Source: an uncultured Candidatus Rokubacteria bacterium (GTDB lineage Bacteria > Methylomirabilota > Methylomirabilia > Rokubacteriales > DASRDR01). Taken from it: 64,000 nt of DNA. The notes below the pieces were generated by a model. That model made no database searches. It was not told the origin of the DNA and saw only the letters and a list, made by a program, of their open reading frames with translations. The stretch is from the NCBI GenBank assembly GCA_963826115.1, contig CAWGVS010000005.1, forward strand, positions 704,001 through 768,000, given 5' to 3'. Positions 3,012 to 57,187 of this stretch are shown here, piece after piece (within the stretch, counting starts at the first letter, position 1; each line of letters begins with the position of its first letter). The position numbers and the translations under genes are program-made.

Positions 3012-4070
3012 ATGCCCGCGCGCTCCCTCGGCGAGCTGGCCCGTCTGGTCGGCGGAGACCTCGAGGGGGATCCGTCGCTCGAGATCCGCGGCTTCGCGAG
3101 TCTCGAGAGCGCGGGCGCGGGGGACCTCTCCTTCGTCGTCTCCGAGCGCCACCTCGCGGCCGCGCGGCGGAGCTCGGCCGCCGCGCTGATCGCGCCCCCG
3201 GGGCTCGACGTGGCGGGCCGCCCGGCGATCCGGGTCGTGCAACCGTACGCCGCCGTCGCCGCGGTCGTCCGCGTGTTCTTCCCGGAGCCGGCGGTGGCCC
3301 CCGGCGTCCACCCGACCGCGCACATCGCCGACGGCGCGAGCGTCGCGCCAACCGCCACCGTGGGCGCGTATGCCGTGATCGGCGAGGGCTCCACGATCGA
3401 GGACCGGGCCGTGCTTCACGCCCACGTCTTCGTGGGCCCGGACTGCCGGGTCGGGGCGGAGAGCGTCCTCCACCCGCACGTCGTGCTGCGCGCGAGCGTG
3501 TCCCTCGGGCGCCGCGTGATCGTCCACCCCGGGAGCGTGCTCGGCGCCGACGGATTCGGCTACGTGTTCGACGGTCAGGCGCACCGGAAGATCCCCCAGG
3601 TGGGCGGGGTCGTGGTGGAGGACGACGTCGAGATCGGGGCGAACGTGGCCGTGGACCGGGCGACCCTCGGCGAGACCGTGATCGGCCGCGGGACCAAGAT
3701 CGACAACCTCGTGCAGATTGGCCATAATACCGTCGTCGGCGCGGGCGCCATCATCGTCGCGCAGGCGGGCATCGCGGGGTCGTGCCGGATCGGGCGCGGC
3801 GTCGTGATCGGCGGGCAGGTGGGCCTGGCCGACCACGTGACGATCGGCGACGGCGCGCAGATCGGGTCTCAGTCCGGCGTCCATCGCGACGTGCCGGCGG
3901 GCGCGGGGATGATCGGGACGCCGGCGATACAGGGCGACGCGGGGCTGCGCGCCCTGGCCGCCATCGGGCGCATCCCGGACCTCCTGCGGGAGGTGCGCAT
4001 GCTCGGCCGGCGGCTGGCGGCGCTGGAGCGGAAACTCGGGGCGGAAGGAGGACCCGCGGCGCGTGGGTGA
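3012..4070 (+). CDS. lpxD: UDP-3-O-acylglucosamine N-acyltransferase
   Basis: Hexapeptide repeats, [18 protein letters not shown]. Confidence 0.96.
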
Positions 4071-4848
4071 GCGGACGTCGGAGATCCATCCCACCGCGGT
4101 CGTCCACCCGGACGCGCGCTTCGGGCCCGGGGTGCGGGTCGGCCCGTTCGCGGTCATCGGCCAGGGCGTGTGCCTCGGCGAGGACGTCGAGATCGGCCCG
4201 CACGTGGTGCTGGAGGGGCCGCTCGAGATCGGGGCCCGCTGCCAGATCCACGTGGGGGCGGTGATCGGCCTGCCGCCACAGGACCTGAAGTGGAAGCCGG
4301 GCACGCCGTCGGGCGTGCGGATCGGCGAGGGCACGGTGATCCGTGAGTACGCGACGATCCACCGGGCGTCCACGCCCGACGGCTTCACGGTGCTGGGCAG
4401 GGAATGCTACCTGATGGCGCAGGGGCACATCGCCCATGACTGCCAGATCGGCGACCACGTGATCATGACCGGTTACACCGCGCTCACCGGCTTCGTGCAG
4501 GTCGGCGACCGCGCGGTGATCTCCGGCCTGACGGGGATCCACCAGTTCGTGCGGATCGGGACGATCGCGATGGTGAGCGGGTGCTCGCGGATCGGCCAGG
4601 ACGTGCCGCCGTACTTCATCGTCGAGGGGAACCCGGCCGAGGTGCGCGGGGTGAACATCGTCGGGCTGAGGCGCGCCGGCGTGCCGGCGGACGTCCGGCT
4701 CAACATCCAGCGCGCGTACAAGATCCTCTACCGGTCGGGGCGAGCCCCCGGGCCGGCGCTCGAGCAGATCCGCAGCGAGGTCGAGCCATCACCGGAGATC
4801 GAGCAGCTCTGCGACTTCATCGCGTCGTCGAAGCGCGGGATCTGCTAG
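4063..4848 (+). CDS. lpxA: Acyl-ACP--UDP-GlcNAc acyltransferase
   Basis: [36 protein letters not shown]. Confidence 0.96.
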
Positions 4849-4857
4849 GGGAGGGAG

Positions 4858-5865
4858 ATGGGCAAGCGCGAGCAGAACCGGCTGCGGGCCGGGGTCGTCG
4901 GGGCCGGCCACATGGGGCAGTACCACCTCCTGGTCTACGCCGAGCTGTGGGACGTCGACCTCGTGGGCATCGTGGACACCGACGCGGGGAAGGCGGCCCG
5001 CCTCGCCGCGCAGTACGATTCGCAGGCCTTCGCCGACCACCGCGAGCTGATCGGCAAGGTGGACGTGGTGTCCATCGCCGTGCCGACTCCGCTCCACTTC
5101 CAGGTCGCGAAGGAGCTCCTCGAGGCGGGGGTGAGCGTCCTGGTCGAGAAGCCGCTGACGCCGACGCTGGAAGAGGCCCGCGACCTGTTCCGGATCGCCC
5201 GCGAGCGGAACGTCGTGCTGCACGTCGGCCACGTCGAGCGGTTCAACGGGGCGGTGCAGGAGCTCCGCAAGATCGTCGCCAGCCCCATCCTGGTGGAGTC
5301 GCGGCGGCTCGGGCCCTTCGTCCCGCGGGTGCAGCACGACACCGTGGTCATGGACCTGATGATCCACGACATCGACATCGTGCTCGGGCTCGTGGACAGC
5401 GAGGTCCGGCGGATCAGCGTGGCGGGCTCGCGCGTCCACTCGGCGCGCTCCGACGTCGCCAACGTGCAGATCCTGTTCGAGAGCGGCACGGTCGCGAACA
5501 TCACCGCCAGCCGGGCCACCGAGCACAAGGTCCGGACGCTCGCGATCACGCAGCCGGACGCGTACATCTTCCTCGACTACACGGATCAGGACATCCAGAT
5601 CCACCGGCGGGCGGCTTCGGAGTACGTGCTGAACCGGGAGTCGATCCGCTACCGGCAGGAGTCCTTCGTCGAGCACCTGTTCGTGCACAAGGAGAACCCG
5701 CTCAAGTCGGAGATCCTCCACATCGTCAAGGCGGTTCGCGAGGCGCAGCGGACGGGCGTGGTCGAGCTCCTCGAGCAGGACGACGTCCGCTCGCTGGCCG
5801 TGGCGCTCGAGATCGAGCGCATGATCGAGGAAGGTCGGCCGAACCTCGACTGGCCGCCCCGCTGA
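4858..5865 (+). CDS. Gfo/Idh/MocA oxidoreductase, GnnA-like (UDP-GlcNAc 3-dehydrogenase candidate)
   Basis: GAGHMG Rossmann motif, EKP, GHVERFN, DLMIHDID; located between lpxA and lpxI/lpxB. Confidence 0.85.
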   Translation: MGKREQNRLRAGVVGAGHMGQYHLLVYAELWDVDLVGIVDTDAGKAARLAAQYDSQAFADHRELIGKVDVVSIAVPTPLHFQVAKELLEAGVSVLVEKPLTPTLEEARDLFRIARERNVVLHVGHVERFNGAVQELRKIVASPILVESRRLGPFVPRVQHDTVVMDLMIHDIDIVLGLVDSEVRRISVAGSRVHSARSDVANVQILFESGTVANITASRATEHKVRTLAITQPDAYIFLDYTDQDIQIHRRAASEYVLNRESIRYRQESFVEHLFVHKENPLKSEILHIVKAVREAQRTGVVELLEQDDVRSLAVALEIERMIEEGRPNLDWPPR

Positions 5866-5869
5866 GGGG

Positions 5870-6691
5870 ATGGCCGAGGCGCTGGGCCTCGTCGGCGGTG
5901 CCGGGGCGCTGCCGGCCCTGATGGCCCGCGAGGCGCGCCGCGCCGGCTGGCGCGTGATCGCCTTCGCGCTTGGGCCCCCGGACCTCCTCGAGCCCCACGC
6001 CGACCGCGTGGTGCCCTGCCAGCTGGGCGACGTCGGGCCCATCCTGGAAGTGCTCGGCGAGGAGGGCATCCGGCACGTGGTGCTCGCCGGCCGGGTGCGG
6101 AAGGACGTCCTGTTCCAGGGCGCCCCGCTGGATTCGGCCGCGCGCGATCTCCTCTCCCGGGCGAAGGACTGGACCGACGAGGGGCTCCTCGGCACGGCGG
6201 TGCGGGTGCTCGGCTCGATGGGCATCGAGGTGCTCGACCAGCGGAGGTTCCTGTCGCCCTGGCTCGTGCCCTCGGGCGCGGTGGCCGGCCCGCCGGTCCC
6301 GACGGAGTCCCGGGCGGACGTGGAGCGCGGCCTTGTCCTGGCCCGCGAGATGGCGGAGCGCGGCGTCGGCCAGACGGTCGTCCTTCGCGCCGGATCGGTG
6401 GCCGCGGTCGAGGCCATGGAGGGGACCGACGAGGCGGTGCGCCGGGGTCTGGCCCTCGCGGGGCGGGGCGCGGTCGTGGTCAAGGCGGCCGCGCCCGCGC
6501 ACGACTACCGGCTCGACGTGCCCACGGTCGGCCCGGACACGGTCGACCGCTGTGTCGCGGGCGGGGCGGCCGTGCTGGCGCTCGAGGCGGGGCGCGTGCT
6601 GCTCCTCGAGCGCGAGCAGGTCGAAGCGCAGGCGGCCCGGACGGGGATCAGCATTGTCGGGGTCGCGGAGCGGCCGGGCGTCGTCGACTGA
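5870..6691 (+). CDS. lpxI: UDP-2,3-diacylglucosamine diphosphatase LpxI
   Basis: LGLVGGAGALP, GVGQTVV, AVEAMEGTD, DVPTVGPDT. Confidence 0.9.
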   Translation: MAEALGLVGGAGALPALMAREARRAGWRVIAFALGPPDLLEPHADRVVPCQLGDVGPILEVLGEEGIRHVVLAGRVRKDVLFQGAPLDSAARDLLSRAKDWTDEGLLGTAVRVLGSMGIEVLDQRRFLSPWLVPSGAVAGPPVPTESRADVERGLVLAREMAERGVGQTVVLRAGSVAAVEAMEGTDEAVRRGLALAGRGAVVVKAAAPAHDYRLDVPTVGPDTVDRCVAGGAAVLALEAGRVLLLEREQVEAQAARTGISIVGVAERPGVVD

Positions 6692-42462: not shown

Positions 42463-42539
<77 letters not shown>

Positions 42540-42614
42540 TTTCCCGCCGACCCCCAGGCGCGGCGTCCTCGCGGCGTTGCGGTCCCGGTCGCGACCGGAA
42601 AGACCGCACGCCGC

Positions 42615-43412
42615 GTGACGAGACCGAGCCGCCCCGTCATCCTCGTCTCCAACGACGACGGCATCCACGCGCCCGGCATCGCGGCGCTGGCCACCGCGCT
42701 CGACTCCGTCGGCGAGGTGTGGGTCGTCGCGCCCGACCGCGAGCGAAGCGCCGTCGGGCACGCGCTGACGCTCCATCGTCCGCTCACCGCCGACCAGCTC
42801 GGGCCGCGCCGCTTCGCCGTCAACGGCACGCCGTCGGACTGCGTGAACCTGGCGCTCCTCGGGCTTCTGCCGGTGCGCCCGCATCTCGTCGTCGCGGGCG
42901 TCAACGCCGGCTCGAACCTCGGCGACGACGTGACGTACTCCGGCACGGTCTCGGCCGCCCTCGAGGGCGCGCTCCTCGGCGTTCCCGGGCTCGCCGTCTC
43001 GCTCATCAAGCCGGCGGGGCCGGCGAGCTACCGGCCTGCCGCGCGCGCGGCCGCGCGGCTGGTCGGGCTTCTCCTCCGAGACCCGGGCCGCGGCGCGACG
43101 CTCCTCAACGTGAACGTCCCGCCCGGGCAGCCCCGGGGCGTGCGCGTCACGCGCCTCGGGCGGCGCCTCTACAGCGAGAAGGTCGTCGAGCGCCAGGATC
43201 CACGCGGACGACGCTACTTCTGGATCGGCGTCGGCCCGCCGGCCTGGGAGGCGGGGGAGGACACCGACTACGCGGCCGTCCACGCGGGCTACGTCTCGGT
43301 CACGCCGCTGATGCTCGATCTCACGGACTATCCGGGCCTCCGCGCGCTGAAGGACTGGGAAGGGGAGTCGCGGCGACCGTCGCGGAGCCGGGTCCCGGGC
43401 GGCCCGCGGTGA
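42615..43412 (+). CDS. surE: 5'/3'-nucleotidase SurE
   Basis: ILVSNDDG, GTPSDCV, GVNAGSNLG, YSGTV, VSVTPL. Confidence 0.96.
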   Translation: MTRPSRPVILVSNDDGIHAPGIAALATALDSVGEVWVVAPDRERSAVGHALTLHRPLTADQLGPRRFAVNGTPSDCVNLALLGLLPVRPHLVVAGVNAGSNLGDDVTYSGTVSAALEGALLGVPGLAVSLIKPAGPASYRPAARAAARLVGLLLRDPGRGATLLNVNVPPGQPRGVRVTRLGRRLYSEKVVERQDPRGRRYFWIGVGPPAWEAGEDTDYAAVHAGYVSVTPLMLDLTDYPGLRALKDWEGESRRPSRSRVPGGPR

Positions 43413-44095
43413 GCGGGGGCCGGGCCGTCGGGACGGGAGCGGGCTGGCAGGAGGCGCGGGCCGCCCGCGAGCGGGAGCGCATGGTCGAGGAGCAGCTCGT
43501 GCGGCGCGGGGTCACGGATCCCCGGGTGCTCGACGCCATGCGGCGGGTTCCGCGCCACCGGTTCGTCGAGGAGGCGCTGCGGGATCGCGCATACGGCGAT
43601 CACCCGCTGCCGATCGGCGAGAACCAGACGATCTCCCAGCCCTACATCGTGGGGATGATGACGCAGCTCCTCGCGCTCACCGGGACGGAGAAGGTGCTCG
43701 AGATCGGCACCGGCTCCGGCTACCAGACGGCGGTCCTGGCGGAGCTGGTGCGGCGCGTGTGCTCGGTCGAGCGGTTCATGTCGCTCGGGGTCCGGGCCCG
43801 GCGCATCCTGGAGGAGTTGGGGTATACTAGCGCAGTCGTCAAGATGGCCGACGGGACGTACGGGTGGGCCGACGAGGCCCCCTTCGAGCGGATCATCGTG
43901 ACGGCCGGCGCACCGGCGATCCCGGCGCCCCTGGTGCAGCAGCTGGCCGAGGGCGGTCGGATCGTGGTGCCGGTGGGCGGACCGCAGTCCCAGGTGCTGC
44001 ATGTCGCCGAGAAGGTGGACGGTCGCATGCGGCTCACGATGGACTGCGACTGCTCGTTCGTGAAGCTTGTCGGGAAGTACGGATGGGAGACCTGA
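43409..44095 (+). CDS. pcm: Protein-L-isoaspartate O-methyltransferase
   Basis: VPRHRF, QTISQP, VLEIGTGSGYQ. Confidence 0.96.
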   Translation: MSGGRAVGTGAGWQEARAARERERMVEEQLVRRGVTDPRVLDAMRRVPRHRFVEEALRDRAYGDHPLPIGENQTISQPYIVGMMTQLLALTGTEKVLEIGTGSGYQTAVLAELVRRVCSVERFMSLGVRARRILEELGYTSAVVKMADGTYGWADEAPFERIIVTAGAPAIPAPLVQQLAEGGRIVVPVGGPQSQVLHVAEKVDGRMRLTMDCDCSFVKLVGKYGWET

Positions 44096-44148
44096 GCCCC
44101 CGATTCCGGGGGCGGCTCGGGCTGATGGTTCCGAGGCCCGGGTGGGGT

Positions 44149-44225
44149 CGGGGCGTAGCGCAGCTTGGTAGCGCGCCTGCTTCGGGAGCAGGAGGTCGCT
44201 GGTTCAAGTCCAGTCGCCCCGACCA
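44149..44225 (+). tRNA. tRNA-Pro(CGG)
   Basis: CGGGGCG acceptor, CCTGC-TTCGGGA-GCAGG anticodon arm, GGTTCAAGTCC, CCA. Confidence 0.96.
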
Positions 44226-47827: not shown

Positions 47828-47904
47828 GCCCCCGTAGCTCAGTTGGATAGAGCAAGGGTTTCCTAAACCCTGGGCCGGGTGTTCGATTCACCCCGGGGGC
47901 ACCA
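47828..47904 (+). tRNA. tRNA-Arg(CCT), island integration site
   Basis: GCCCCCG acceptor, AGGGT-TTCCTAA-ACCCT anticodon arm, GTTCGATTC, CCA. Confidence 0.96.
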
Positions 47905-49555
47905 ACTCCGCTACAGCACCCTCGAGCAGCGGGTCCACCGTCACCGTCCCGGTGATTTCGTAGCAGCGACCCTCCGGGGTCTCCCGTGGCGTCAGCGTCA
48001 ACCGGCCCGGCAACAGGCGCCGCAGAATGGGTCGGGCCTCGCTGGGCTCACCGCGCAGCAAGGTGGCCCACTCAGCCAACACCGCGCGCACCATCGCCTT
48101 CAGGGCCGGGGTGACCGTGGGCCGGGTTGACCGACGTCGCGCCTCGACGTTCTGTAGCTGGGCCGCCAGGGTGGCCCGGTGCTGCTCCTGCTCGCGCATC
48201 TTCTCCATCAGGCGCGCCGGGGGCTTGCCATCGGCGATGGCCGACACGAAGTTGTCGAGGATCCGGTCCACTCGCTTCATGTCGCGCTCCAGACGCTGGC
48301 ACTGGGCGTCGAGCGTGGCGTACTGCGCCGCGGCCTCCGCCACGGCCTGCGCCAGCACGTCCTCCAGCAAGGTGGTCGTCAGCACCTCCTCGTCCAACAC
48401 CGCCAGCATCGCCGCGTCCAGGTCGGGCAGGGGCAGGGACCAGCCGTTCGTACAGGTGCCATCGACGCGCCAGCCGTTGCAGACGTAGTAGACGCGCGGG
48501 GTGCCGCGTCGGCTCGTCCGCTTGATTGCATGCATCGCCCCGCCACACGTTCCACAGCGGACCAGGCCTCCGAACAGGTGGCGCGACTCCAGCGCCGGGT
48601 CGGGGCGCGCCCCCGTCTCCCGATGATTGCCGACGCCCCCGGTGTACGTCTGCCGGGTGCGTGCCAGGCGAGCATGGGCGGCGGTCCACAGGGTCTCGGG
48701 GATGATCCGGCACTCGGGCACCTTGACGTCGATCCAGTCGTCGGCAGGGACGGCTTCCTTGACCTTGGTGCCGCCGCGGTCCACCCAGCGTGTCTTGCCG
48801 TAGATCGACCGGCCTCGGTACAGGTCGCGGAAGGCCATCTCCCACAGGCACGTCTTCGCCCACCCTCGGCCCGGTCGTGGCCCCGGCACCCCCTCGGCAT
48901 TGAGCCCGCGGGCGATGCGCGCGTAGCCGCGGCCCTGGGCGATCTCCGTGAACACGCGGGTGACCACGGCGGCCTGGGTCGGGTCGATCACCCGCACCAC
49001 ATGGCCCTCGCGCCGCACGTTGGTGTACCCGTAGACCTTGCCGCCGGCCACGTGGCCGGCGCGTGCCTTGCCCCGCCCGACATCGCGCGCACGCTGCTGG
49101 TCCTGCTGTCGGTGCATCTCATCCACCATCGCCATCGTGGACACTAGGTACCGGTCCAGGAGGGTGTCGCGCTTCACCTCGCTGTCGGTGAGGTAGCAGT
49201 AGATGCGCACCCCGGCGTCGGTGATGCGTTTGAGCGCCACGGGGACCTCCTCCAGCGAGCGTCCCAGCCGGCTTTGCTCCATGGTGACCACCACCTGGAA
49301 TGAGGGCCGGGGTTTCAGGGCGTTCATCAGCCGCAGGAACCCTGGCCGCTTCACGAACTCGGCCCCGCTGATGCCGTCGTCGATGTACACGTGCGCGGGG
49401 TCCACCGTCCAGCCCTTGCGTGTCGCGTAGGCGGTGGCGTGCTCGACCTGGCGGGTGACGCTCTTGGCCTCGTCGGCCACCCCGCCTTGCTCGGTGCTCT
49501 TGCGAGCGTAGATGGCTGCGGTCAGGTGGGGGGGTGCTACACTGGGCCTGCTCAT
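47888..49555 (-). CDS. Large serine recombinase (integrase), integrated form ending within the tRNA antisense
   Basis: AIYARKS catalytic motif, DDGISG, SRLGR, YGY recombinase domain, CGTCG..YYVC..C zinc ribbon, coiled coil; GGAGG RBS before ATG 49555. Confidence 0.95.
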   Translation of the reverse strand: MSRPSVAPPHLTAAIYARKSTEQGGVADEAKSVTRQVEHATAYATRKGWTVDPAHVYIDDGISGAEFVKRPGFLRLMNALKPRPSFQVVVTMEQSRLGRSLEEVPVALKRITDAGVRIYCYLTDSEVKRDTLLDRYLVSTMAMVDEMHRQQDQQRARDVGRGKARAGHVAGGKVYGYTNVRREGHVVRVIDPTQAAVVTRVFTEIAQGRGYARIARGLNAEGVPGPRPGRGWAKTCLWEMAFRDLYRGRSIYGKTRWVDRGGTKVKEAVPADDWIDVKVPECRIIPETLWTAAHARLARTRQTYTGGVGNHRETGARPDPALESRHLFGGLVRCGTCGGAMHAIKRTSRRGTPRVYYVCNGWRVDGTCTNGWSLPLPDLDAAMLAVLDEEVLTTTLLEDVLAQAVAEAAAQYATLDAQCQRLERDMKRVDRILDNFVSAIADGKPPARLMEKMREQEQHRATLAAQLQNVEARRRSTRPTVTPALKAMVRAVLAEWATLLRGEPSEARPILRRLLPGRLTLTPRETPEGRCYEITGTVTVDPLLEGAVAELVPPG

Positions 49556-49663
49556 CACGGTCCTCCTCCAAAGGTCGGGCTTGATGGGCCAGCGCCCGGC
49601 GGTGTGCACCGCGCGGGCGCTACCTATTTACGGTCACGCAGCATACACGACCGTCCTGCCAGG

Positions 49664-51046
49664 CTACGCTCTCTTCGCCGACGCCCTCGGCCCCGGCCCC
49701 TCCGTGCGTGCCATGGTCGCGACGGGGGCGGGGATACCCGAGATCAACGCGAACCACGTCTCCCGCGAGACGACCACATCGGCGCGCAGCACGGCCCGAA
49801 TCCACAGTTGGTAGGCCGCGAATGCGCTACCGCTGCTGTCGGCCGCGTCCCGACTGATGGTCAGTTCCAGGGCCAGCCGCAGGCAGATGAACAGGTTCGC
49901 GAACGGCCCGAGGTAGGCTTCGCTTTCGTTTGTCCCGGCGCCGCCGGTGGCACTCACCTGCGTGGTGACGAACTTCTGGAGCCGGCCCCAAGACTCCGGG
50001 GGCCGCAGCGGCTGCTGGGTGCTGTCCTTCAGGCGATCCAGCGCCCCGGCATCCCGCGGGTGCAGAATCAACGACACGCCCTCCGCCGGCCCGTTGGCCG
50101 CCAGGATTCCTTCGTAGGCTTCGCTGATCGTGTCGTAGGTCAGCGCGCCGCCGGCCGGCATCGCGATGATGCCAGGCGTGAACTTGATGCCGCGCGGCTG
50201 GTCCTGGCCGGCGGCGGAGGGATCGCCCCGAAGGGCCGCGAGGTCGAGGCCGTTCGCGAGTTCCTCGCCGAAGACCTGCTCGATGACCGGCGGCGCGCTG
50301 GGCGAGCTGTCCCGGGCCAGCTCTTCGCTCATCTTCACCCAAATCATCTGCGTCCGCGCCTTCGCGGACACGCGATCCAGCACCACGTCGGTCGCCGGGG
50401 CGGCGACATTCTCCGGCTTCCAGAGCGGCGGCCCGGCCGACACGACTCGGGCGAAGTGTAGTTCCTGCGTGTCCATCGGAATCGTGCGAGCCCCGGCCCG
50501 AAAGACGGTACTGGCGGCGCGCGCGCGGTCCAACACATCGAGGGCTATCGCCTCCGGGACGAGATAGCCGCCACTGGCGCCGGGGCTGGTGGCCATCACG
50601 CGCTGTTCGGCCTGGGCGTCGCGCCAGTCCCCGGTGATGATCGCCCGCAGGGCGCGACCGAACGAGAGGTCGCCCGGCCGGATACCATCCGGCAACCGCA
50701 CCGGCACGTGGCTGCGCAGCGACTCGGATGGCGTCAGCGCCAGCACAGACCCTCGGTCGCTGATCGCCGCGTCCTCCTGCCGGCGAGCGGCCCGGGTCGG
50801 CAGCGGCTCGCTCAGTTCGCGCTCCACCGCGTCGAGGTTCTCGCGGCCGGCGATGTACGACCGCCGCGGGGCGTGGTCGGGGTCGAGGGCGGCGATCTGC
50901 TCGGCCGCGCGGCCCTGCACCAAGTCGAGGCGATCCCACTCGGCCGACTCCGTGTCGGTCATCGCGCGGCCCTCGGTGCTGGCCACCAGGGCGCGCATGG
51001 ACTGGACGATTTCTCCCCGCTTCTGCCGTAATTCCGTGAGGGTCAT
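49664..51046 (-). CDS. HK97-fold phage major capsid protein with N-terminal delta domain
   Basis: LTELRQKR coiled-coil start, SGGYLVPE, W.PEN, KMSEEL.RDS, D.AAL.GD..QPRGI, LKDSTQQPL. Confidence 0.9.
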   Translation of the reverse strand: MTLTELRQKRGEIVQSMRALVASTEGRAMTDTESAEWDRLDLVQGRAAEQIAALDPDHAPRRSYIAGRENLDAVERELSEPLPTRAARRQEDAAISDRGSVLALTPSESLRSHVPVRLPDGIRPGDLSFGRALRAIITGDWRDAQAEQRVMATSPGASGGYLVPEAIALDVLDRARAASTVFRAGARTIPMDTQELHFARVVSAGPPLWKPENVAAPATDVVLDRVSAKARTQMIWVKMSEELARDSSPSAPPVIEQVFGEELANGLDLAALRGDPSAAGQDQPRGIKFTPGIIAMPAGGALTYDTISEAYEGILAANGPAEGVSLILHPRDAGALDRLKDSTQQPLRPPESWGRLQKFVTTQVSATGGAGTNESEAYLGPFANLFICLRLALELTISRDAADSSGSAFAAYQLWIRAVLRADVVVSRETWFALISGIPAPVATMARTEGPGPRASAKRA

Positions 51047-51323
51047 CGGGCACGCTCCCCTACTGCGGGCCTCGGGAGCGGGTGGGAGGGCGTGGCGGAG
51101 GCCCAATCGTGGCCACGCGTCCACCCGCCCCCGAAGCACGCATGCTCGGACGGTGATGGTCGCGCGCCTGATCGCCTGAGCCACAGCCGGCGGGCCAGCG
51201 CAGCGCCGGTCGCGCCCGGTGCCCCACAGGGCCGCGCGCGCCGGTGGCCGGTTCAGTTGTGGGCGCATCATATGGCAGAGCGGGGCTGAGAAGGCAAATC
51301 CCCCTGGTGATACCCTGGTGCCC

Positions 51324-52082
51324 GTGTCTCCGCGGGTCGAAGTCCTTCCCATCCGCCTGATGCTGCCGGGAGCCTTGCCCGAGAGCGACGTTCGCACGGT
51401 CCCGCTCCTGCGGCTCATGGCGGCCACGAACGACACCCGCCTGATGGAGCGGCTGTTCTTGGTGACCCGCCGGCCCGAGAATCACATCGAGAGGCTCGTA
51501 TGCCTCGCAGAGGCGGGCTACTACGGTCGCATGTTCCTGGCGCACCTCTACGAAAGCGGAGAGGCGCTCGGAGCCTTGGACCATGTGGCCCACGCCTGGG
51601 TGACGAACACCGCCGCCAGCTCGGCTGAAGCCCAGGCGGCACTGACCAGCTTGCGGGAGGCCTTTGCGGGTGAACCCACGGCGGGCTTCTACGGGTTCTT
51701 GGCGTGGATGCGCACGAAGGCCGCGTTCCACTACAAGGACGCCTCGTTCCGGGACGCACTGAAGACCACCGGGAGGCAATCGGGCCACGTCATCCTCGGT
51801 AGGTATGCCGGAGCGAGTCGGTACATCGTCGTGGACGTCCTGATGGATGAGGTCCTCAAGAAGGCGGGGAAGGAGATGATGGTGGACTACGACGCGGCCC
51901 TTGGTCGCGCGGTCGAACTGGGGAACGCCCTGGAGCGGCTCGTCGCCCATCTCCTCACCCACTACCTGCAGGAGCGCCCTGCCACGTGGCGCGAGGAACC
52001 GTGGGAGACGGTGCACTGGCCCGCAGCCCTGAGGAAGCGGACGAAACAAAGCGAGACAGACGAAGGGCCGCCGGCATGCTAG
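51324..52082 (+). CDS. Accessory protein with HEPN-like RxxxxxH motif
   Basis: Long ORF opposite to the element operon; WMRTKAAFHY at about 51705-51734; start uncertain (possible leaderless GTG after TGaTACCCT). Confidence 0.65.
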   Translation: MSPRVEVLPIRLMLPGALPESDVRTVPLLRLMAATNDTRLMERLFLVTRRPENHIERLVCLAEAGYYGRMFLAHLYESGEALGALDHVAHAWVTNTAASSAEAQAALTSLREAFAGEPTAGFYGFLAWMRTKAAFHYKDASFRDALKTTGRQSGHVILGRYAGASRYIVVDVLMDEVLKKAGKEMMVDYDAALGRAVELGNALERLVAHLLTHYLQERPATWREEPWETVHWPAALRKRTKQSETDEGPPAC

Positions 52083-52456
52083 GCCTGGCCCTCCTGATTC
52101 GTTTCGGCCGCCGCGGTGATCTCGGCCCAGGGCACCGCGAGTAGTTCCGTCAGTTGCACGTCCCGGCCTTCGGCATCCACGGGAAACAGCATGACCCGGT
52201 CGAATCCCAGCAGTCCCGCACAGGCGGCATTGAAGCGCGTGGACTCCTGGAAGAAGCGCCGGATGGTGGCCCAGCGTTCCCGTTCCGCGTCATCCGTGGC
52301 CCGCCGCTCGTTGAGCCAGTGCCGCGCATCCCGGTCGAATCCGTAGGCCAGCGCCCCCAGCACGTTCAGCGGCTGGCCCTGCAGCAGCCGCACCGTCTGC
52401 AGGTGGGCCAAGGCCACCGCGGTGCCGGGTGTCATCGGTCCGGGGTCGGTTGTCAT
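52079..52456 (-). CDS. Hypothetical protein (125 aa)
   Basis: ATGA overlap with terS, GGAGG RBS. Confidence 0.7.
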   Translation of the reverse strand: MTTDPGPMTPGTAVALAHLQTVRLLQGQPLNVLGALAYGFDRDARHWLNERRATDDAERERWATIRRFFQESTRFNAACAGLLGFDRVMLFPVDAEGRDVQLTELLAVPWAEITAAAETNQEGQA

Positions 52457-52926
52457 GGGCGGCCCCCCTCCTGCGCCCGCAGCAGTGACTCCATGGCGTC
52501 CGGCGGGGCCGCGGGCGTTAACGGTTCCACCGTGCCGCGGGCTGCCGGTGCCAGCCCCAGCGCGCGCAATGCGAGCAGACAACGGCGCCACGCATCGGCC
52601 ATCAGCGCGCACTCGGGCCGTACCCGGATGAGTCCGTTGTGGGCGTACGACTCTCCGTGCTCACGGAGGAACGCGCGGTGCCGATCGAAGTCGGCCCGTG
52701 CACTGGCCGCCAGCAGGATCGCGGCGCCGTCTCCCCGCGTGGCGAGCCGCTGCGCGTCCATCTCGGCCGCCAGGGCGTCGTAGTGGGCGCGCACGTCAGC
52801 ATCGAGCCCCAGCGGGGCCGGCGGCGCTCCCACGTCCGCGGGTTTCATCTCCAGCGCCGGCCGCTCGCGGTCGGGGCGCAGCGTGCCGCGGCGGGCCTTC
52901 GATTCACGGCGACGGCGAGGAGGCAT
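52453..52926 (-). CDS. Phage terminase small subunit, P27 family
   Basis: RGTLRPDR, PPAPLGL, G....RP...M.DAWRR, LGLAPAAR. Confidence 0.85.
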   Translation of the reverse strand: MPPRRRRESKARRGTLRPDRERPALEMKPADVGAPPAPLGLDADVRAHYDALAAEMDAQRLATRGDGAAILLAASARADFDRHRAFLREHGESYAHNGLIRVRPECALMADAWRRCLLALRALGLAPAARGTVEPLTPAAPPDAMESLLRAQEGGRP

Positions 52927-52949
52927 CAGTCAGACCACCGGGTGCCCAG

Positions 52950-53045
52950 GAATCTCGGCGCGCGTGGCCATCGGACCGTCGTGCCTGCGCAGGCGGGTAG
53001 GGACCACTCAGGCGCTAGCTTTTTGCCCCGCCCTCCCCCGCGCGA
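52950..53045 (-). other. Candidate cos/packaging site
   Basis: Non-coding gap upstream of terS reading GGGGGAGGGCGGGGCAAAAAG..ACCCGCC..GCGCGCCGAGATT on the minus strand. Confidence 0.5.
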
Positions 53046-53153
53046 ATCCGACGCACAGGCCACAAGGTGGCCCGCCGTCCCCACGCCCAGCCCTTGGCCT
53101 ATGTGCACGTAGCTCCCCCCTCCACCCCCGTGGGGCTCAGGGCAACGTCGGGG

Positions 53154-53390
53154 TCATGCATGGAGCGGGCAGGCGCACCGCGCGGGGTGCGGGGGCATCG
53201 GAGCCGTCGGGCAGTTCCCGCAATCGCAGCCCGCCCGGTGGGGCTGGTTGAGCCGCAGGAGTCGCATCCCGAACACGCGCTTCCGCATCCGGCGAAACCG
53301 CGGCGGGGGCTTCTGCTCTTTCTGTGCGGCTGCGACGGCGCGGTAGGCGTCCTTCGGGGTGGTGCTGTCGTCGTTCGTCCTGTCCGTCAT
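53154..53390 (-). CDS. Small basic Cys/His-rich protein (78 aa)
   Basis: AGGGAG RBS; ends HRAGCDCGNCPTAPMPPHPARCACPLHA. Confidence 0.55.
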   Translation of the reverse strand: MTDRTNDDSTTPKDAYRAVAAAQKEQKPPPRFRRMRKRVFGMRLLRLNQPHRAGCDCGNCPTAPMPPHPARCACPLHA

Positions 53391-53473
53391 GGTCGTGTCC
53401 TCCCTGCTGTTGGTGTGGGGCTGGGGCGCTCCATCAAAGAGGCCGATCTCCAGGTCGCTCCATCGCCGGCCCA

Positions 53474-53755
53474 TCATCGAAGCTCCTGCAGGTCGGGCGT
53501 GCGTGCTCGGTGCCGCCAGCGGTGCAGCAGCTTGCGCACGTTGGGCGGCACCGCGTACTCGGTCAGAGCCGCGCGCTCCAGCAACCCCGGCCAGTCCCGC
53601 GTGCGCACCTGCACCAGCACCACGTCGGTGGTGCCGATGCCGACGATGTCCCACTCGCCCAACGAGGCCGCACTGCGCGTGCAGCGGTAACCCGCGGCTT
53701 CCAGCAGGGCCATGGAGCGGTGCTCGTTCCGGGTGCCCTTCCGCTTCGCGTTCAC
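53474..53755 (-). CDS. Hjc-like PD-(D/E)XK Holliday-junction resolvase
   Basis: NAKRKGTRNE..LEAAGY...RSAAS..WDIVG..VLVQVR. Confidence 0.75.
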   Translation of the reverse strand: MNAKRKGTRNEHRSMALLEAAGYRCTRSAASLGEWDIVGIGTTDVVLVQVRTRDWPGLLERAALTEYAVPPNVRKLLHRWRHRARTPDLQELR

Positions 53756-54283
53756 TCCAGGGGCTCCAACGACGACGGCCGCTGCGGCAGGCGGGCACCG
53801 AGACGACGCGGGCCGGGGTCGGCGGCCGGTGCCGGCGGGGGTGAGGGCACGCTCGGCTGCGGGGCCGGCGCCAGGGCGCTCGCCCGGTGCAGAAACTCCG
53901 GGGGCAGGCCGCCCAGCCGGCGCAGCGCCTGGGTGTACACGGCCTGCACGACGGCCTCTTGCTGCTGGAGCCACTGAAGCTCCCGGCGGAACGGAGCCAG
54001 CCGATGGTCGCGGGTGCGGGCCGTCGTGGCCGTCGCGAGCGCCGTGCAGCCGGCTGACGACGGTCTCCGTGCAGCGTGGGCAGGCCAACGCGGTGCTCTG
54101 GTCCTCCGTGTTGAAGACTGCGAACGTGACGAGGAAGTGATCGAGCAGGACCCCACACCAGGCGCAGCGGGTCAGTCGGGGCACGAACCACGACAGACGG
54201 TCAATCGGTGGCGGCACCGGTCGCCGGCGGCGCGGCTTGCCCTTCTTCGTCGGCTGGGTCATGTCGTCGGGCTGGCCGCTCAT
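53752..54283 (-). CDS. Zn-finger hypothetical protein(s), frame ambiguous
   Basis: ATGA-coupled to rep; CAWC..CPRC; a second coding-like frame ends at 53752 with GTGA overlap onto the Hjc start. Confidence 0.5.
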
Positions 54284-55266
54284 GCGGCCTCCGCCCCGAC
54301 GTTGCCCGCGCCCCAGCCATACCGAACCAGATCGCCCCAGCGGCGCGGTCGGCCCGTCACGCTGGGGTCGTCGTCGGGGTCGGCCACCTCCAGGTCGTCT
54401 CCTGGTGGCGGGGCCGGTGCCTGCGCCCCGCCGTCGTCGCCGGTCGGGTGATCGTCGTTCTCGGTGTGCATCCGTGCCTCCGGTTCTCGCCCGTAGGTTG
54501 CGCAGCGCGCCAGCGTGGCCATGAATCCATCGTCGCGGTCCAGGATCGGTCCGATCCGCTCCGGTCCGGTTTCGATCCGGCCCCTTGAGGCTGAAAGCCC
54601 ATCCGAACCCCCCCGTGCGTCGGGGGGGTAGGGGGGGTTCTTTCGAACCCTTTCTGTCGGAGTCTGAGAAGAAGTCGGCGGGACCATCGGCGCTCGCGTG
54701 TCTGGGACCATCGGCGCTCGCGCAACACCCGGCGCGGAATCGGTAGACCTGGAGCGGCGATTCCTGGGCGATACCATCGGCGCTCGCGGGTCGTCTACCA
54801 TCGGCGCTACCATCGGCGCTGACCCCCCTAGCATCGGCGCTCCGCTGGGCTGCACCATCGGCGCTGGCGCCAGGCCGTCACTCCGTGATGGCACGTCTTC
54901 GTGCGGGGTTGCGGTGCCACGGACCATCGGCGGTGACGCGCCGTGTACCATCGGCGCTTCCAGGCCCATGGCCCCCGGCAGGATGCGGATGGTGGTGAAG
55001 CCGGCGCTGCCCTCGTCGGGGTACCGCACAGCCTCCGTGGCGATCCAGCCGCGGGTCCGCAAGGTCTGAAGGAACCGACTCACGGCACGCGGGCTCCACC
55101 CCCAGCGCCGGGCGAGTTCGACCTGGGACGTGTCGAGCACCAGCGCGCCTGTGTGCCAGTGTGCGGAGAGCAACAGGTACAGCCAGGCGTCCAGGCGGTT
55201 GATGCGTCCCGTTGGCCAGAGCGGATCATCCAGGAGCGAACGCGGCAGCTTCACCCAGCCGGTCAT
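54280..55266 (-). CDS. Phage replication initiator (replisome-organiser type wHTH)
   Basis: GWVKLPRS..W..RLDAWLYLLL..LARRWGWS..V.RFL; KNPPYPP motif; internal iterons. Confidence 0.85.
   Translation of the reverse strand: MTGWVKLPRSLLDDPLWPTGRINRLDAWLYLLLSAHWHTGALVLDTSQVELARRWGWSPRAVSRFLQTLRTRGWIATEAVRYPDEGSAGFTTIRILPGAMGLEAPMVHGASPPMVRGTATPHEDVPSRSDGLAPAPMVQPSGAPMLGGSAPMVAPMVDDPRAPMVSPRNRRSRSTDSAPGVARAPMVPDTRAPMVPPTSSQTPTERVRKNPPYPPDARGGSDGLSASRGRIETGPERIGPILDRDDGFMATLARCATYGREPEARMHTENDDHPTGDDGGAQAPAPPPGDDLEVADPDDDPSVTGRPRRWGDLVRYGWGAGNVGAEAA
54683..54958. repeat. Iteron array (putative ori) within rep
   Basis: ACCATCGGCGCT perfect at 54683, 54707, 54773, 54797, 54809, 54854, 54947; one-mismatch copies at 54830, 54923. 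Confidence 0.85.
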
Positions 55267-55469
55267 TCCCTCGTCTCCGGCCGAGTGCCCGGCTGGTCCG
55301 ACTCCGCGGCCAGCCGACGCTCGGCCTCGCGCAGGATCATCCTCGCCAGCAGGCCCACCAGGTCCTCGTACTCGACCGACCCGCGGGTCGGCACGCGGAA
55401 GAGCCGTGCACCGGCGACCGGCCGCGCCTGGTGGATCACGCGGGCGGGGCGGGGGCGCGCTGTCCTCAT
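55263..55469 (-). CDS. Small hypothetical protein (68 aa)
   Basis: ATGA overlaps with both the HTH and rep genes; amphipathic helix LVGLLARMILREAERR. Confidence 0.7.
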   Translation of the reverse strand: MRTARPRPARVIHQARPVAGARLFRVPTRGSVEYEDLVGLLARMILREAERRLAAESDQPGTRPETRE

Positions 55470-55687
55470 GGCTGGCCGTTGCGGGCGAGAGGCGGGTCGA
55501 ACAGGTTGCCCAGCGGGACGCGGAGGGAGCGAGCAAGGCGCACCTTGGTCTGCCAGGACGGCACGGACAGACCTCGTTCCGCGCGCGAGATGGTGCCGAT
55601 GTCGAGGCCGGTCAGGTGGGAGAGGTCGCGCAGCGTGAGGCCACGCTCCTTCCGCCAGCGCCGCAGAGGATGCGGGTGCGCGCCCAT
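55466..55687 (-). CDS. XRE/Cro-like HTH regulator
   Basis: LRRWRKERGLTLRDLS.LTGL...TISRAERG. Confidence 0.9.
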   Translation of the reverse strand: MGAHPHPLRRWRKERGLTLRDLSHLTGLDIGTISRAERGLSVPSWQTKVRLARSLRVPLGNLFDPPLARNGQP

Positions 55688-55892
55688 GGGTCCACCACGC
55701 GGTCACAAGGTGGCTGGCGAGCGCGAAGCGGCACCGCCATGGTGCTGAACCGCTCGCCGGACCGGCACCCGCTCGTTGTGTGGGCGCGCGCGCAGGTGCT
55801 CGCTGAGAGCACCGCCGATCCGCGATGTGGGTGGGGACGCGGGGTGGTGCTCTCAGCCGTATCATCTACACCGGCCCCATGGGCAGCGCAAC

Positions 55893-55920
55893 AAAAAAAC
55901 GCTTGGCTCGGGTCGCCGCG
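55893..55920 (-). terminator. Putative intrinsic terminator after the inner integrase tail
   Basis: CGCGGC-GACCCGA-GCCAAGCG followed by T7 on the minus strand, immediately after TGA 55921-55923. Confidence 0.5.
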
Positions 55921-55995
55921 TCAGGCGGCGCGACGAAGGGTGACGATTGTCCGGATCGGCCAGGCGTAGCGCGGGCCGGACCCCGCCGGGGGCAC
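55921..55995 (-). other. attP half-site encoding integrase C-terminal tail (inner copy)
   Basis: Reads VPPAGSGPRYAWPIRTIVTLRRAA* in the integrase frame across the core. Confidence 0.8.
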
Positions 55996-56045
55996 ACCCT
56001 TACACCTGGTGCGCGGTGCTATCCAGAATTCGCGCGGGCGCCCGC

Positions 56046-56372
56046 TTACTTGAGCATGCGAATCATCAACGCGACGACTAGTAGACTGGAGATCGGAACG
56101 GTCAGGACCAACCAGGTTAGGACATGGAGTTGCCGGCGAAGTCTCAGCAGGGCAGTGTCACCGCGAAGGATCTCCGCCGATCGCTGCCGATAGAAGAAGA
56201 ACAGCTGTTCCGGATGGCGTATCCCCCAAAAGGCCTCGGGCATCACCTTCTCTGCAACGTTGGGGTACCGTCGCATGAACTGAAGCTGCAATCGGGCGCC
56301 CACGATGCCCATTGCAAGGAAGAGGATCCCGTTGCCGAGGAACAGAAGCACACCTACCAGCGGGCTGACCAC
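56046..56372 (-). CDS. Small two-TM membrane protein
   Basis: 108-aa ORF with hydrophobic N- and C-terminal helices; TAGAAT -10 at 56418-56423 (minus). Confidence 0.7.
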   Translation of the reverse strand: MVSPLVGVLLFLGNGILFLAMGIVGARLQLQFMRRYPNVAEKVMPEAFWGIRHPEQLFFFYRQRSAEILRGDTALLRLRRQLHVLTWLVLTVPISSLLVVALMIRMLK

Positions 56373-56428
56373 GACCCCACCCCCGCGCGACTCCTCAGGT
56401 TTGTGTCGGCGGCCGCTATTCTACGCTC

Positions 56429-56506
56429 CTACGCTGCGCGCCGGAGCGCGACGAGTCGCCGGATCGGTCGCGAGTAGCGTGGGCCGGACCCCGCCGGGGG
56501 CACCAA
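56429..56506 (-). other. attP half-site encoding integrase C-terminal tail (outer copy) / attR
   Basis: Reads LVPPAGSGPRYSRPIRRLVALRRAA*; 29/30 nt identical to 55966-55995 over 56474-56503. Confidence 0.8.
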
Positions 56507-56548
56507 TTAATCAAGTAGTTACGCGACACCATTTCTGAGACGAGCCGG

Positions 56549-56572
56549 TTTTGTGGCGATTTTTGTGGCGAT
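56549..56572. repeat. 12-bp tandem repeat, tyrosine-integrase arm-site-like
   Basis: TTTTGTGGCGAT x2, 42 nt after the att core. Confidence 0.6.
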
Positions 56573-56761
56573 CTTGAGTCGGAGGTCCTGAGACGGCCCC
56601 CAACATCCCAGGCGGCGGAAGGAACCGTTATCATCCCAGTCGTGGGCTAGGCGTCGGCTACCTACCGACGTTTAACGAGCAGAATCCTCGCCGCCCTGCC
56701 CGCGGAATGTCCCCCGAGGCGTTCCACCCGAGGAGAAGCGACACGTAGAGGAGGGCGATCA

Positions 56762-57187
56762 ATGCCGGCGAATCCGCTCATCGGGACGTGGCGGCTCGTG
56801 TCGTGGGAGCTGCGGGACGCGGATGGCCGTGTCACGTACCCCTGGGGTCGCGATCCAGTAGGGTTCATCACGTATACCGTGGACGGGCGCATGGCTGTGC
56901 AGTTTGGGCGTTCGGACCGCGCTCAGCTCTCCGTTGCCGATTGGCTGGCCGCATCTGACGCGGAGATCGTGGCGGCGGCCCGGGGCTACTTCGCATACTG
57001 CGGCACCTACGAGTGCCGAGACGACACGGTCGTGCACCGGCTGGACCTCTGCCTGATGCCCAACTGGATCGGCGGAGAGCAGGTGCGCCAGGTCGCGTTG
57101 AAGGGGGACACCGTCACTCTCTTCACGCCGCCCACCCAGCTCGGCGGCCAGCAACGGGCCAGCAGCCTCGTCTGGCGGCGAGTGTGA
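56762..57187 (+). CDS. Lipocalin-like domain protein
   Basis: LIGTWRLVSW, P.G.ITYT.DGRM, YFAYCGTY, PNWIG.EQ.R, LVWRR. Confidence 0.88.
   Translation: MPANPLIGTWRLVSWELRDADGRVTYPWGRDPVGFITYTVDGRMAVQFGRSDRAQLSVADWLAASDAEIVAAARGYFAYCGTYECRDDTVVHRLDLCLMPNWIGGEQVRQVALKGDTVTLFTPPTQLGGQQRASSLVWRRV

Follow-up and report, generated by a model that had tools for sequence, protein, structure and literature searches.

We analysed a 64,000-nt stretch of a contig from an uncultured Candidatus Rokubacteria bacterium (the window; G+C-rich, ~0.70), part of a genome of 6.24 Mb in 12 contigs with 5.3% contamination. Within it a tRNA-Arg gene (anticodon CCT) is adjoined by an island that codes for a large serine recombinase, the integrase, and the 3′ end of the tRNA gene is restored by island DNA. 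At the far end of the island a short segment in frame with the integrase is present twice, as an inner and an outer copy, and a single gene, tm108, lies between the two. The integrase has the resolvase, recombinase, and zinc-ribbon domain order that defines large serine recombinases, its alignment shows a YARKST motif whose Ser is presumed to be catalytic, and its frame of 573 aa (555 aa in the database form) also matches the phrog_95 integrase family (2.9e-73). The protein ends ...AELVPPG, and its last codons and stop lie inside the tRNA-Arg gene; the 3′ codons GTG CCC CCG GGG TGA (V P P G stop) are complementary to the acceptor and T stems of the tRNA. Coordinates of all features are collected in the table.

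Features of the tRNA-Arg locus and its island, in window coordinates
Feature	Position	Strand	Match or remark
tRNA-Arg (anticodon CCT), island target	47828-47904	+	ARAGORN
Large serine recombinase (integrase)	47888-49609	-	Pfam Resolvase PF00239 1.3e-21, Recombinase PF07508 1.6e-16, Zn_ribbon_recom PF13408 3.6e-13
attL core CCGGGGGCACCAA (13 nt), common to attL and the outer site	47893-47905		
HK97-type major capsid protein	49664-51436	-	Pfam Phage_capsid 5e-22; phrog_10 major head protein 4.6e-33
Small terminase subunit	52453-52926	-	Pfam Terminase_4 3.5e-10; phrog_83 2.3e-16
Winged-helix replication-initiator-like protein	54280-55536	-	HTH_Crp_2 4.5e-6; phrog_186 DnaD-like loader 6.8e-8; phrog_391 O-like initiator 8.4e-5
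Xre-type helix-turn-helix regulator	55466-55687	-	HTH_31 5.8e-10; HTH_3 3.7e-9
Inner copy: island-side arm (30-mer 55966-55995), then 21 codons and stop, AGSGPRYAWPIRTIVTLRRAA, in frame with VPP	55921-55995	-	
Flank right of the inner copy	55996-56045		not native chromosome
tm108 (108 aa, hydrophobic segments at both ends)	56046-56372	-	unnamed family of ~105-115 aa proteins
TAGAAT hexamer, 46 nt ahead of the tm108 GTG start	56418-56423	-	possible -10
Outer copy: island-side arm (30-mer 56474-56503), then 21 codons and stop, AGSGPRYSRPIRRLVALRRAA	56429-56503	-	putative chromosome junction (attR)
Native-like tRNA flank CAATTAATCAAGTAGTTACGCGAC..., beginning with the displaced CA of the tRNA CCA end	56504-56543		

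A repeat search recovers the two copies as direct repeats of 71 nt (family D3; 55925-55995 and 56433-56503) that are 82% identical and spaced by 508. A sequence-only reading of this DNA had described the core-proximal 30-mers as matching at 29 of 30 nt, and they do differ at one base; it had also described tail peptides of the same length with 16 of 21 residues identical, and the minus-strand translations following VPP, VPPAGSGPRYAWPIRTIVTLRRAA and VPPAGSGPRYSRPIRRLVALRRAA, agree. The swaps that it named (CCG/CCA, CTT/CTC, CGT/CGG, GCC/GCA, GCC/GCG, and the stops TGA/TAG) all stand in the codon table. Outside the 30-mer, 15 of 45 nt differ, while 10 of the 15 codons (stop included) keep their meaning, and the differences between the copies fall 5/2/9 on codon positions 1/2/3. 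When the same number of substitutions was placed at random, 0.8% of 100,000 trials preserved as many residues and 0.4% preserved the stop too. The integrase frame is the best preserved of the six (10/15 versus at most 8/15); a plus-strand reading of the repeat, with 8/15 residues preserved against 10/15, was rejected. The likeness breaks off sharply, at the stop codon on one side and at GGGGGCAC on the other, and no similarity was found past either edge (545 of 2000 and 1959 of 2000 shuffles score equally well), so that the repeat spans exactly the interval from stop codon to crossover core. Elsewhere in the 6.24-Mb genome the 30-mer does not recur at up to 3 mismatches, and a reversed control pattern gave 0 matches.

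The segment GTGCCCCCGG is shared, in the same frame, by the integrase end at attL and by both copies. The frame GTG CCC CCG G is unbroken in attL, in both copies, and in the relatives described below, which places the crossover inside the reading frame; together with the codon pattern and the same-frame tails of the relatives, it bears out the earlier suggestion that the tail is under selection as protein. Recombination at the core would swap the final Gly and stop of the integrase for Ala and 20 further residues. Measured from core position 47902, the ends of the two copies lie 8093 bp (55995) and 8601 bp (56503) away, the two distances given previously. The 13-nt core of attL is found at the outer site, and the inner site has 10 nt in common with it (CCGGGGGCAC); only 11 nt of tRNA sequence are repeated at the outer site. 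By eye, a GTAGC in the integrase-side arm has a GCTAC at the mirror position in the 30-mer, and TGTA-like letters occupy the GTAGC position in 14 of the 17 listed integrase ends. The short core and the mirrored GTAGC/GCTAC fit the partly palindromic attP expected of a serine integrase. We note that the 8-mer TGGGCCGG of the 30-mer (56481-56488) also occurs at the variable/T-stem region of the tRNA (47872-47879), 8 nt farther from the core, and that the island-side arm resembles the tRNA arm minus its T loop; the recurrence may be chance or a common integrase half-site motif. The attachment sites show no single-strand fold beyond that of shuffled sequences (z = -0.01 for all three) and an Rfam search at the sites gave no match, and an RNA gene or folded site was rejected on these results.

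Integrase genes that continue across the crossover are also present in relatives. Ten of 13 database relatives were aligned with the integrase (alignment A2), and eight of the nine homologues reaching the C terminus stop at ...PG; P0007 alone reads on, with GANERAYNIQVSVLVRAA. Integrase relatives were found in 21 metagenome loci, of which 14 were scanned for tRNA genes, and the integrase end overlaps tRNA-Arg(CCT) in eight of the 14. Among 183 genomes of the same order, 38 have an integrase relative at E <= 1e-40, and six of the 29 genome loci returned end with VPPG and a stop inside tRNA-Arg(CCT). We examined 20 kb for far junctions in these six loci and one more: in L068 an in-frame tail, EGLARLAQQPIEILIAA, lies 11,031 bp away, and in L070 another, GWAARSRPVAFSATWRPAA, lies 17,349 bp away; two of the other 20-kb loci have no tail within reach and two are ended by contig ends. 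In L073 a broken integrase reads straight into a tail, ERFAAFAQHPIDVLLVA, and in G001:C15, from the same genus as the window, the integrase frame reads into AGSVRSATATIHGRLQIRAA; G039:C9 has a lone tail, EGSGRDRTRVLPGMIRAA. The tails of L068 and L073 are equal in length, differ 6/3/10 by codon position, and end in TGA and TAG. The tails in P0007, L073, and G001:C15, with those at the far ends of L068 and L070, argue that the integrase gene is truly extended across attP by a conserved 3′ tail. Such a tail is a property of the integrase family and not of the window locus alone.

There are 10 distinct tails in all, the window's two and eight others, and the conserved tail is 17-21 residues long. 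Seven of the 10 end in Ala-Ala, as do seven of the eight that are at least 17 residues long, compared with 27 of 1033 open frames in the window (2.6%). Given these Ala-Ala ends, the likeliest function of the tail would be a C-terminal degradation tag or an activity switch that integration removes.

Relics of this integrase family are common; G001:C15 and G039:C9 are examples, and broken integrases are found in L028-L031. The G001:C15 relic (L104 9232-9987, on a 409-kb contig) is a 251-codon C-terminal piece of an integrase ending ELVPPAGSVRSATATIHGRLQIRAA and fused to its 20-residue tail; no catalytic domain lies upstream. A TAGAAT overlaps the tail stop there, and in the window a TAGAAT follows the outer tail. 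A search of a species-genome collection with the integrase alignment returned one irrelevant locus only, and viral contigs gave no match to the integrase. With all island proteins as queries, tblastn against the 21 metagenome loci recovered the integrase only, apart from a lipocalin match at 30% in L025, whose relative orientation is reversed and which we did not use; the relatives thus have cargo of their own. No Pfam family was recognised in 10 frames of the L068 island.

The sequences beyond the two copies indicate which of them meets the chromosome. In five of the eight genomes of the genus with a readable flank (G011, G012, G003, G014, and G005), the tRNA is followed by CAA(T/C)...TAGTTACGCG or TACTTAGGCGAC. 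Aligned with the G011 flank, that of the outer copy matches at 26 of 40 positions and has an 11-mer in common with it, and without gaps it matches the G003 flank at 19 of 30; the flank of the inner copy has at most 9 of 30 matches with native flanks. The locus thus has the make-up of a tRNA-targeting island, with an intact tRNA and adjoining integrase at one end and a displaced 3′ piece with a native-like flank at the other. The native-like outer flank, the longer core shared with attL (13 versus 10 nt), and the restored CA of the CCA end together argue that all 8601 bp are inserted DNA. We conclude that the outer copy is in all likelihood the chromosome junction, and that the inner copy would be the end of an 8093-bp integrase-bearing island. 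On the minus strand the inner flank reads ...GGTGTAAGGGT followed by GTGCCCCC, which by eye faintly resembles the 3′ ends of integrase genes, its GGTGTA being 4 nt closer to the core; alignment tests gave no support to this flank as a decayed integrase end or as a look-alike of the native flank. As a separate observation, the first 25-30 nt past tRNA-Arg(CCT) are unusually alike in five species of the genus (L079, L081, L082, L093, and L094), with TAGTTA or TACTTA and then GCGAC; this intergenic stretch may be conserved as a terminator or as the chromosomal half-site of the integrase.

The gene between the copies has one near relative, P0015, at 71% identity, and a global library holds 96 cluster representatives at E <= 0.001, mostly of 105-115 residues. 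Among the 183 genomes of the order tm108 was found in none but its own, and a profile of 30 relatives found it in none of the other 250 of 251 genomes searched in the phylum; there was likewise no match in viral contigs. No Pfam or NCBIfam family was found for tm108, and none is common to the 30 aligned relatives; in the ESM Atlas it falls among unnamed small-protein clusters only, at 0.92, one of them with 11% UspB members. The relatives in the global library and the absence from the other genomes searched in the phylum argue for a real, imported gene, and tm108 looks like cargo foreign to the phylum. The gene had been credited with its own TAGAAT -10: the gene is real and the hexamer is present, but the promoter is not borne out, as a consensus scan of 55700-56800 found no two-hexamer promoter, nor any terminator. 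Across the 508-bp unit G+C falls from ~0.70-0.74 to ~0.61-0.64, and the chromosome beyond is also lower. In a check of sequencing reads, five runs held 5-8% of the words, and four of these gave short, low-depth contigs. One 151-nt contig from another run covers 55958-56108 with 0 differences, and others cover 56065-56242 and 56558-56700; no joints of 508-, 8093-, or 8601-bp circles were seen in these contigs, and such shallow data bear neither on excision nor on habitat.

We looked for other places where a variable gene lies between paired sites, as a family of minimal cassettes of the kind raised by the sequence-only reading would predict. In this limited search there were none in the window's own genome, in the 95 retrieved loci, in the 183 genomes of the order, or in viral contigs, and no array with a different gene between copies of the 30-mer emerged. 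In the 183 genomes the site pattern gave 7 near-matches against 4 control hits, none of them paired. As an exact 22-mer the P arm is absent from viral contigs, and as an exact 20-mer it is absent from the 95 loci except those from the window's own contig. One candidate for a second array, L028, was rejected: a broken integrase relative with the short tail GGNARQPHS and a stop is followed by 2.8 kb and then tRNA-Arg (3666-6582), and the 2.8 kb contains what by eye is an apparent tyrosine-recombinase gene (5799-6476, minus strand), which makes this a stack of unlike elements at one tRNA and no parallel to the window. Two loci of the same genus, G014:C10:334248-353892 and G010:C32:14169-19873, have extra 46-48-nt copies of the 3′ part of tRNA-Arg(CCT), 6-13 kb apart. 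These fragments read as a mark of island stacking at this tRNA by a different, long-core type, and they show that tRNA-Arg is a busy hotspot in the genus.

We favor, at a probability of about 0.6, the explanation that an earlier sister island, inserted at the same tRNA and belonging to the same recombinase family, has left the 508-bp unit as its stump or miniature. The 8.1-kb island sits in the 3′ end of tRNA-Arg(CCT), and in this recombinase family attP lies within the integrase reading frame, with the crossover directly after the V-P-P codons, in the complement of the tRNA acceptor stem. The integrated gene ends ...VPPG and a stop in the tRNA, and the gene at an excised or attP-type junction would read 17-21 codons into the other arm. 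Each 75-nt copy is such an arm, of which the 30-mer, as the integrase half-site, is kept as DNA and the 21 codons behind it as protein. The copies differ at a third of the positions outside the half-site, which is too diverged for a recent duplication, and they end exactly at the crossover, which argues that their junctions were made by the recombinase. The 508 bp would then be the remnant of an older, distal sister island whose interior was deleted, leaving an arm, a tail, and one foreign cargo gene; that the unit might be the eroded end of an earlier sister element had been raised before, and it accords with the native-like flank of the outer copy and not the inner one, with the divergence at 15 of 45 nt, and with the absence of the gene from 250 other genomes. 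The present island may have joined on the tRNA side, or the older island may have been trimmed after tandem integration. Either the stump's junction on the tRNA side was accepted as a pseudo-site, or a complete tandem was shortened afterwards, possibly through action of the integrase on the hybrid attP formed in a tandem. The anatomy, the reading frames, the layout across the family, and the native-like flank are seen in the sequences; we infer both this order of events and that the tail has a function at all.

Several observations weigh against this account. A crude alignment score for G014 favors the inner flank over the outer one (6 versus 4), and three of the eight genus genomes have unrelated flanks, so the native-flank test is a modest one. 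If a whole sister island was once present, its integrase end is gone or nearly gone: local alignment of the inner flank with the integrase 3′ end is not significant (1776 of 2000 shuffles score equally). No relative was found with tm108 next to such a site, so that its role as cargo of a sister island is deduced from its position only. To our knowledge serine integrases do not normally join attP to attL or attR, which makes tandem entry harder to explain than for tyrosine integrases; it needs a tolerated pseudo-site or a later deletion. As for the tail, three of the 10 do not end in Ala-Ala (GGFARSC, GGNARQPHS, and ...LLVA), and the tails are homologous, so the Ala-Ala count stands for one conserved trait and not for seven events.

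The exact bounding of the unit by two copies of the site, with half-sites identical at 29 of 30 nt and a single intact foreign gene inside, is also what would be expected if the 508 bp were a non-autonomous mini-element or cassette, a gene plus a site, that was inserted in trans as a small circle into the right junction and can leave again, with the tRNA collecting such units. The left edge of the unit, weakly like an integrase-side arm by eye, could be read in the same way, and the composite islands of the staphylococcal cassette chromosome (SCC) are described, in the passages cited, as cases in which serine recombinases handle arrays with recombinase-less units (PMC5964201, 10.1101/336396). 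We consider a cassette quite unlikely here: no second example came from the genome itself, the viral contigs, the 95 retrieved loci, or the 183 genomes of the order, and no 508-bp joint was seen in the low-depth contigs. Insertion of attP into attR is, moreover, no reaction of serine integrases that we know of. A broader claim builds on the cassette, namely that the integrase family uses its own attachment site as a protein switch and also carries one-gene-one-site units, with islands growing by accretion at the tRNA. We think this claim improbable; if it were true, the free DNA would encode an integrase with a 17-21-residue Ala-Ala tail, as a protease tag or activity module, integration would cut the tail off, and in the 508-bp unit we would have the first "serine-integrase cassette" at a tRNA, with accretion as in SCC at rlmH.

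The native-like flank of the outer site and its longer core shared with attL (13 versus 10 nt) would also suit a single island of 8.6 kb that uses the outer site, its inner copy being an internal relic of an old exchange between related islands, such as a swap of right ends; the relic may have been kept as a spare right end or as an integrase binding site beside the control region of the regulator. An 8601-bp circle would place tm108 immediately after the integrase in the same orientation, where an ordinary first gene past attP would stand, and TAGAAT follows the tail stop both in the window and in G001:C15. Yet both tails keep an open frame, their length, and a stop, which an unused relic would not need, even if a stretch of 21 codons offers a small target; the end of the repeat coincides with the crossover core, as is typical of a junction made by a recombinase and not of homologous exchange; and G+C falls across the unit, a point tempered by the lower value of the chromosome beyond. 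We regard a single island as unlikely. That two strain variants of the right end were stitched in series by the assembler is a thought invited by the 12 contigs and the 5.3% contamination, and we find it very improbable: 433 nt of unique DNA with an intact, conserved gene separate the copies, their flanks are unrelated, and the contig from another run crosses the inner junction without a difference.

The remaining genes of the island (47888-55995) give it the look of a minimal phage satellite. The true start of the capsid gene is probably inside the listed frame, near MTLTELRQKRGE, and the initiator-like gene contains four to five ACCATCGGCGCT repeats (54675-54958; repeat families D1/D2) that look like iterons. 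Of the 10 island frames scanned against Pfam and PHROG, none was recognised as a portal, protease, large terminase, tail, or lysis gene, and the remaining frames scanned gave no family. The sole long frame on the opposite strand of the island (51219-52082, plus strand; 287 aa, G+C 0.65-0.66) is likewise without a Pfam or PHROG family and may be an accessory gene. Ahead of tRNA-Arg by 3.6-5.4 kb are two tRNA-Pro genes (GGG and CGG; 42463-44225); this neighborhood recurs in metagenome loci L017, L018, and L030, which indicates that the chromosomal context is conserved across the hosts of this integrase family.

The doubled site alone is unremarkable, as a tRNA hotspot that is used repeatedly would leave such a trace. 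What is new is a large serine recombinase with attP in its own gene, a tRNA target, and a tail exchange on the integrase itself. In the passages cited, a 2014 survey states that serine integrases were not known to target tRNA genes (PMC4383910), and serine-integrase prophages of Mycobacterium abscessus are all described in protein genes (PMC8092301); our searches of open-access text turned up no serine integrase reported to target a tRNA or to span its own attP. A conserved tail ending in Ala-Ala sets the free form of the enzyme apart from the integrated one, and this offers a testable link from integration state to how stable or active a serine integrase is, within a class of enzymes widely applied in genome engineering. 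The stump in turn implies stacking of serine-integrase islands at a single site, a point that touches on how strictly the attP x attB rule holds in nature.

Several known systems share parts of this arrangement. SCC composite islands have CcrAB or CcrC serine recombinases acting at rlmH and form arrays with some recombinase-less units (PMC5964201, 10.1101/336396, in the parts cited), and in architecture alone the window locus is alike, with two units between repeated sites at the 3′ end of a conserved host gene, one of them without a recombinase. It differs in that the target is tRNA-Arg and not rlmH, the second unit is a 508-bp one-gene unit, and only one array was found. The Islander collection, as given in the section cited, lists 125 arrays of two or more among 3919 islands (PMC4383910). 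The window locus shares with those tRNA arrays an intact tRNA, a displaced 3′ piece, and a series of more than one island-end signature; it differs from them, with their tyrosine integrases, in its short core (13 nt) and in its second member, a 508-bp stump that lacks an integrase. Actinobacteriophages with integration-dependent immunity (BPs, Brujita, cluster P, and others) have attP in a reading frame, so that integration removes a C-terminal tag, and their Int and Rep carry C-terminal proteolysis tags, often of the ssrA-like form XXXAA (PMC3694055, PMC8092301, in the passages cited). The likeness is in an attP inside a frame and in tails of which 7 of 10 end in AA; the difference is that in those phages the repressor spans attP and the integrase is a tyrosine recombinase, whereas here the integrase spans attP, and no repressor switch is implied.

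Like phage-inducible chromosomal islands (PICIs), including the capsid-forming ones, the window island is small and combines an integrase, a regulator, a replication module, a small terminase, and a capsid protein; unlike PICIs it has a serine integrase, and the likeness is known here from genes alone, over the 10 frames scanned. Integron cassettes, which depend on the tyrosine recombinase IntI, attI, and a folding attC, are no parallel: the enzyme here is a serine recombinase and not an integron integrase, the sites are unfolded (z ~0) and without an Rfam match, and the integron-like accretion proposed in the sequence-only reading is not supported. A further likeness is to integrases that are altered by their own integration. 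The myxophage Mx8 targets a tRNA locus and swaps a long C-terminal stretch of its integrase, and integration of the archaeal SSV elements splits the integrase gene. In the passages cited, attP is placed within the integrase gene both for Mx8 (intP/intX; PMC6070905, PMC4383910) and for the "suicidal" SSV-type integrases (PMC8371274). As in these, the attachment site in the window lies inside the integrase coding sequence and integration supplies a new 3′ end; unlike these tyrosine recombinases, the enzyme is a large serine recombinase and the tail alone is exchanged, one Gly against 17-21 residues.

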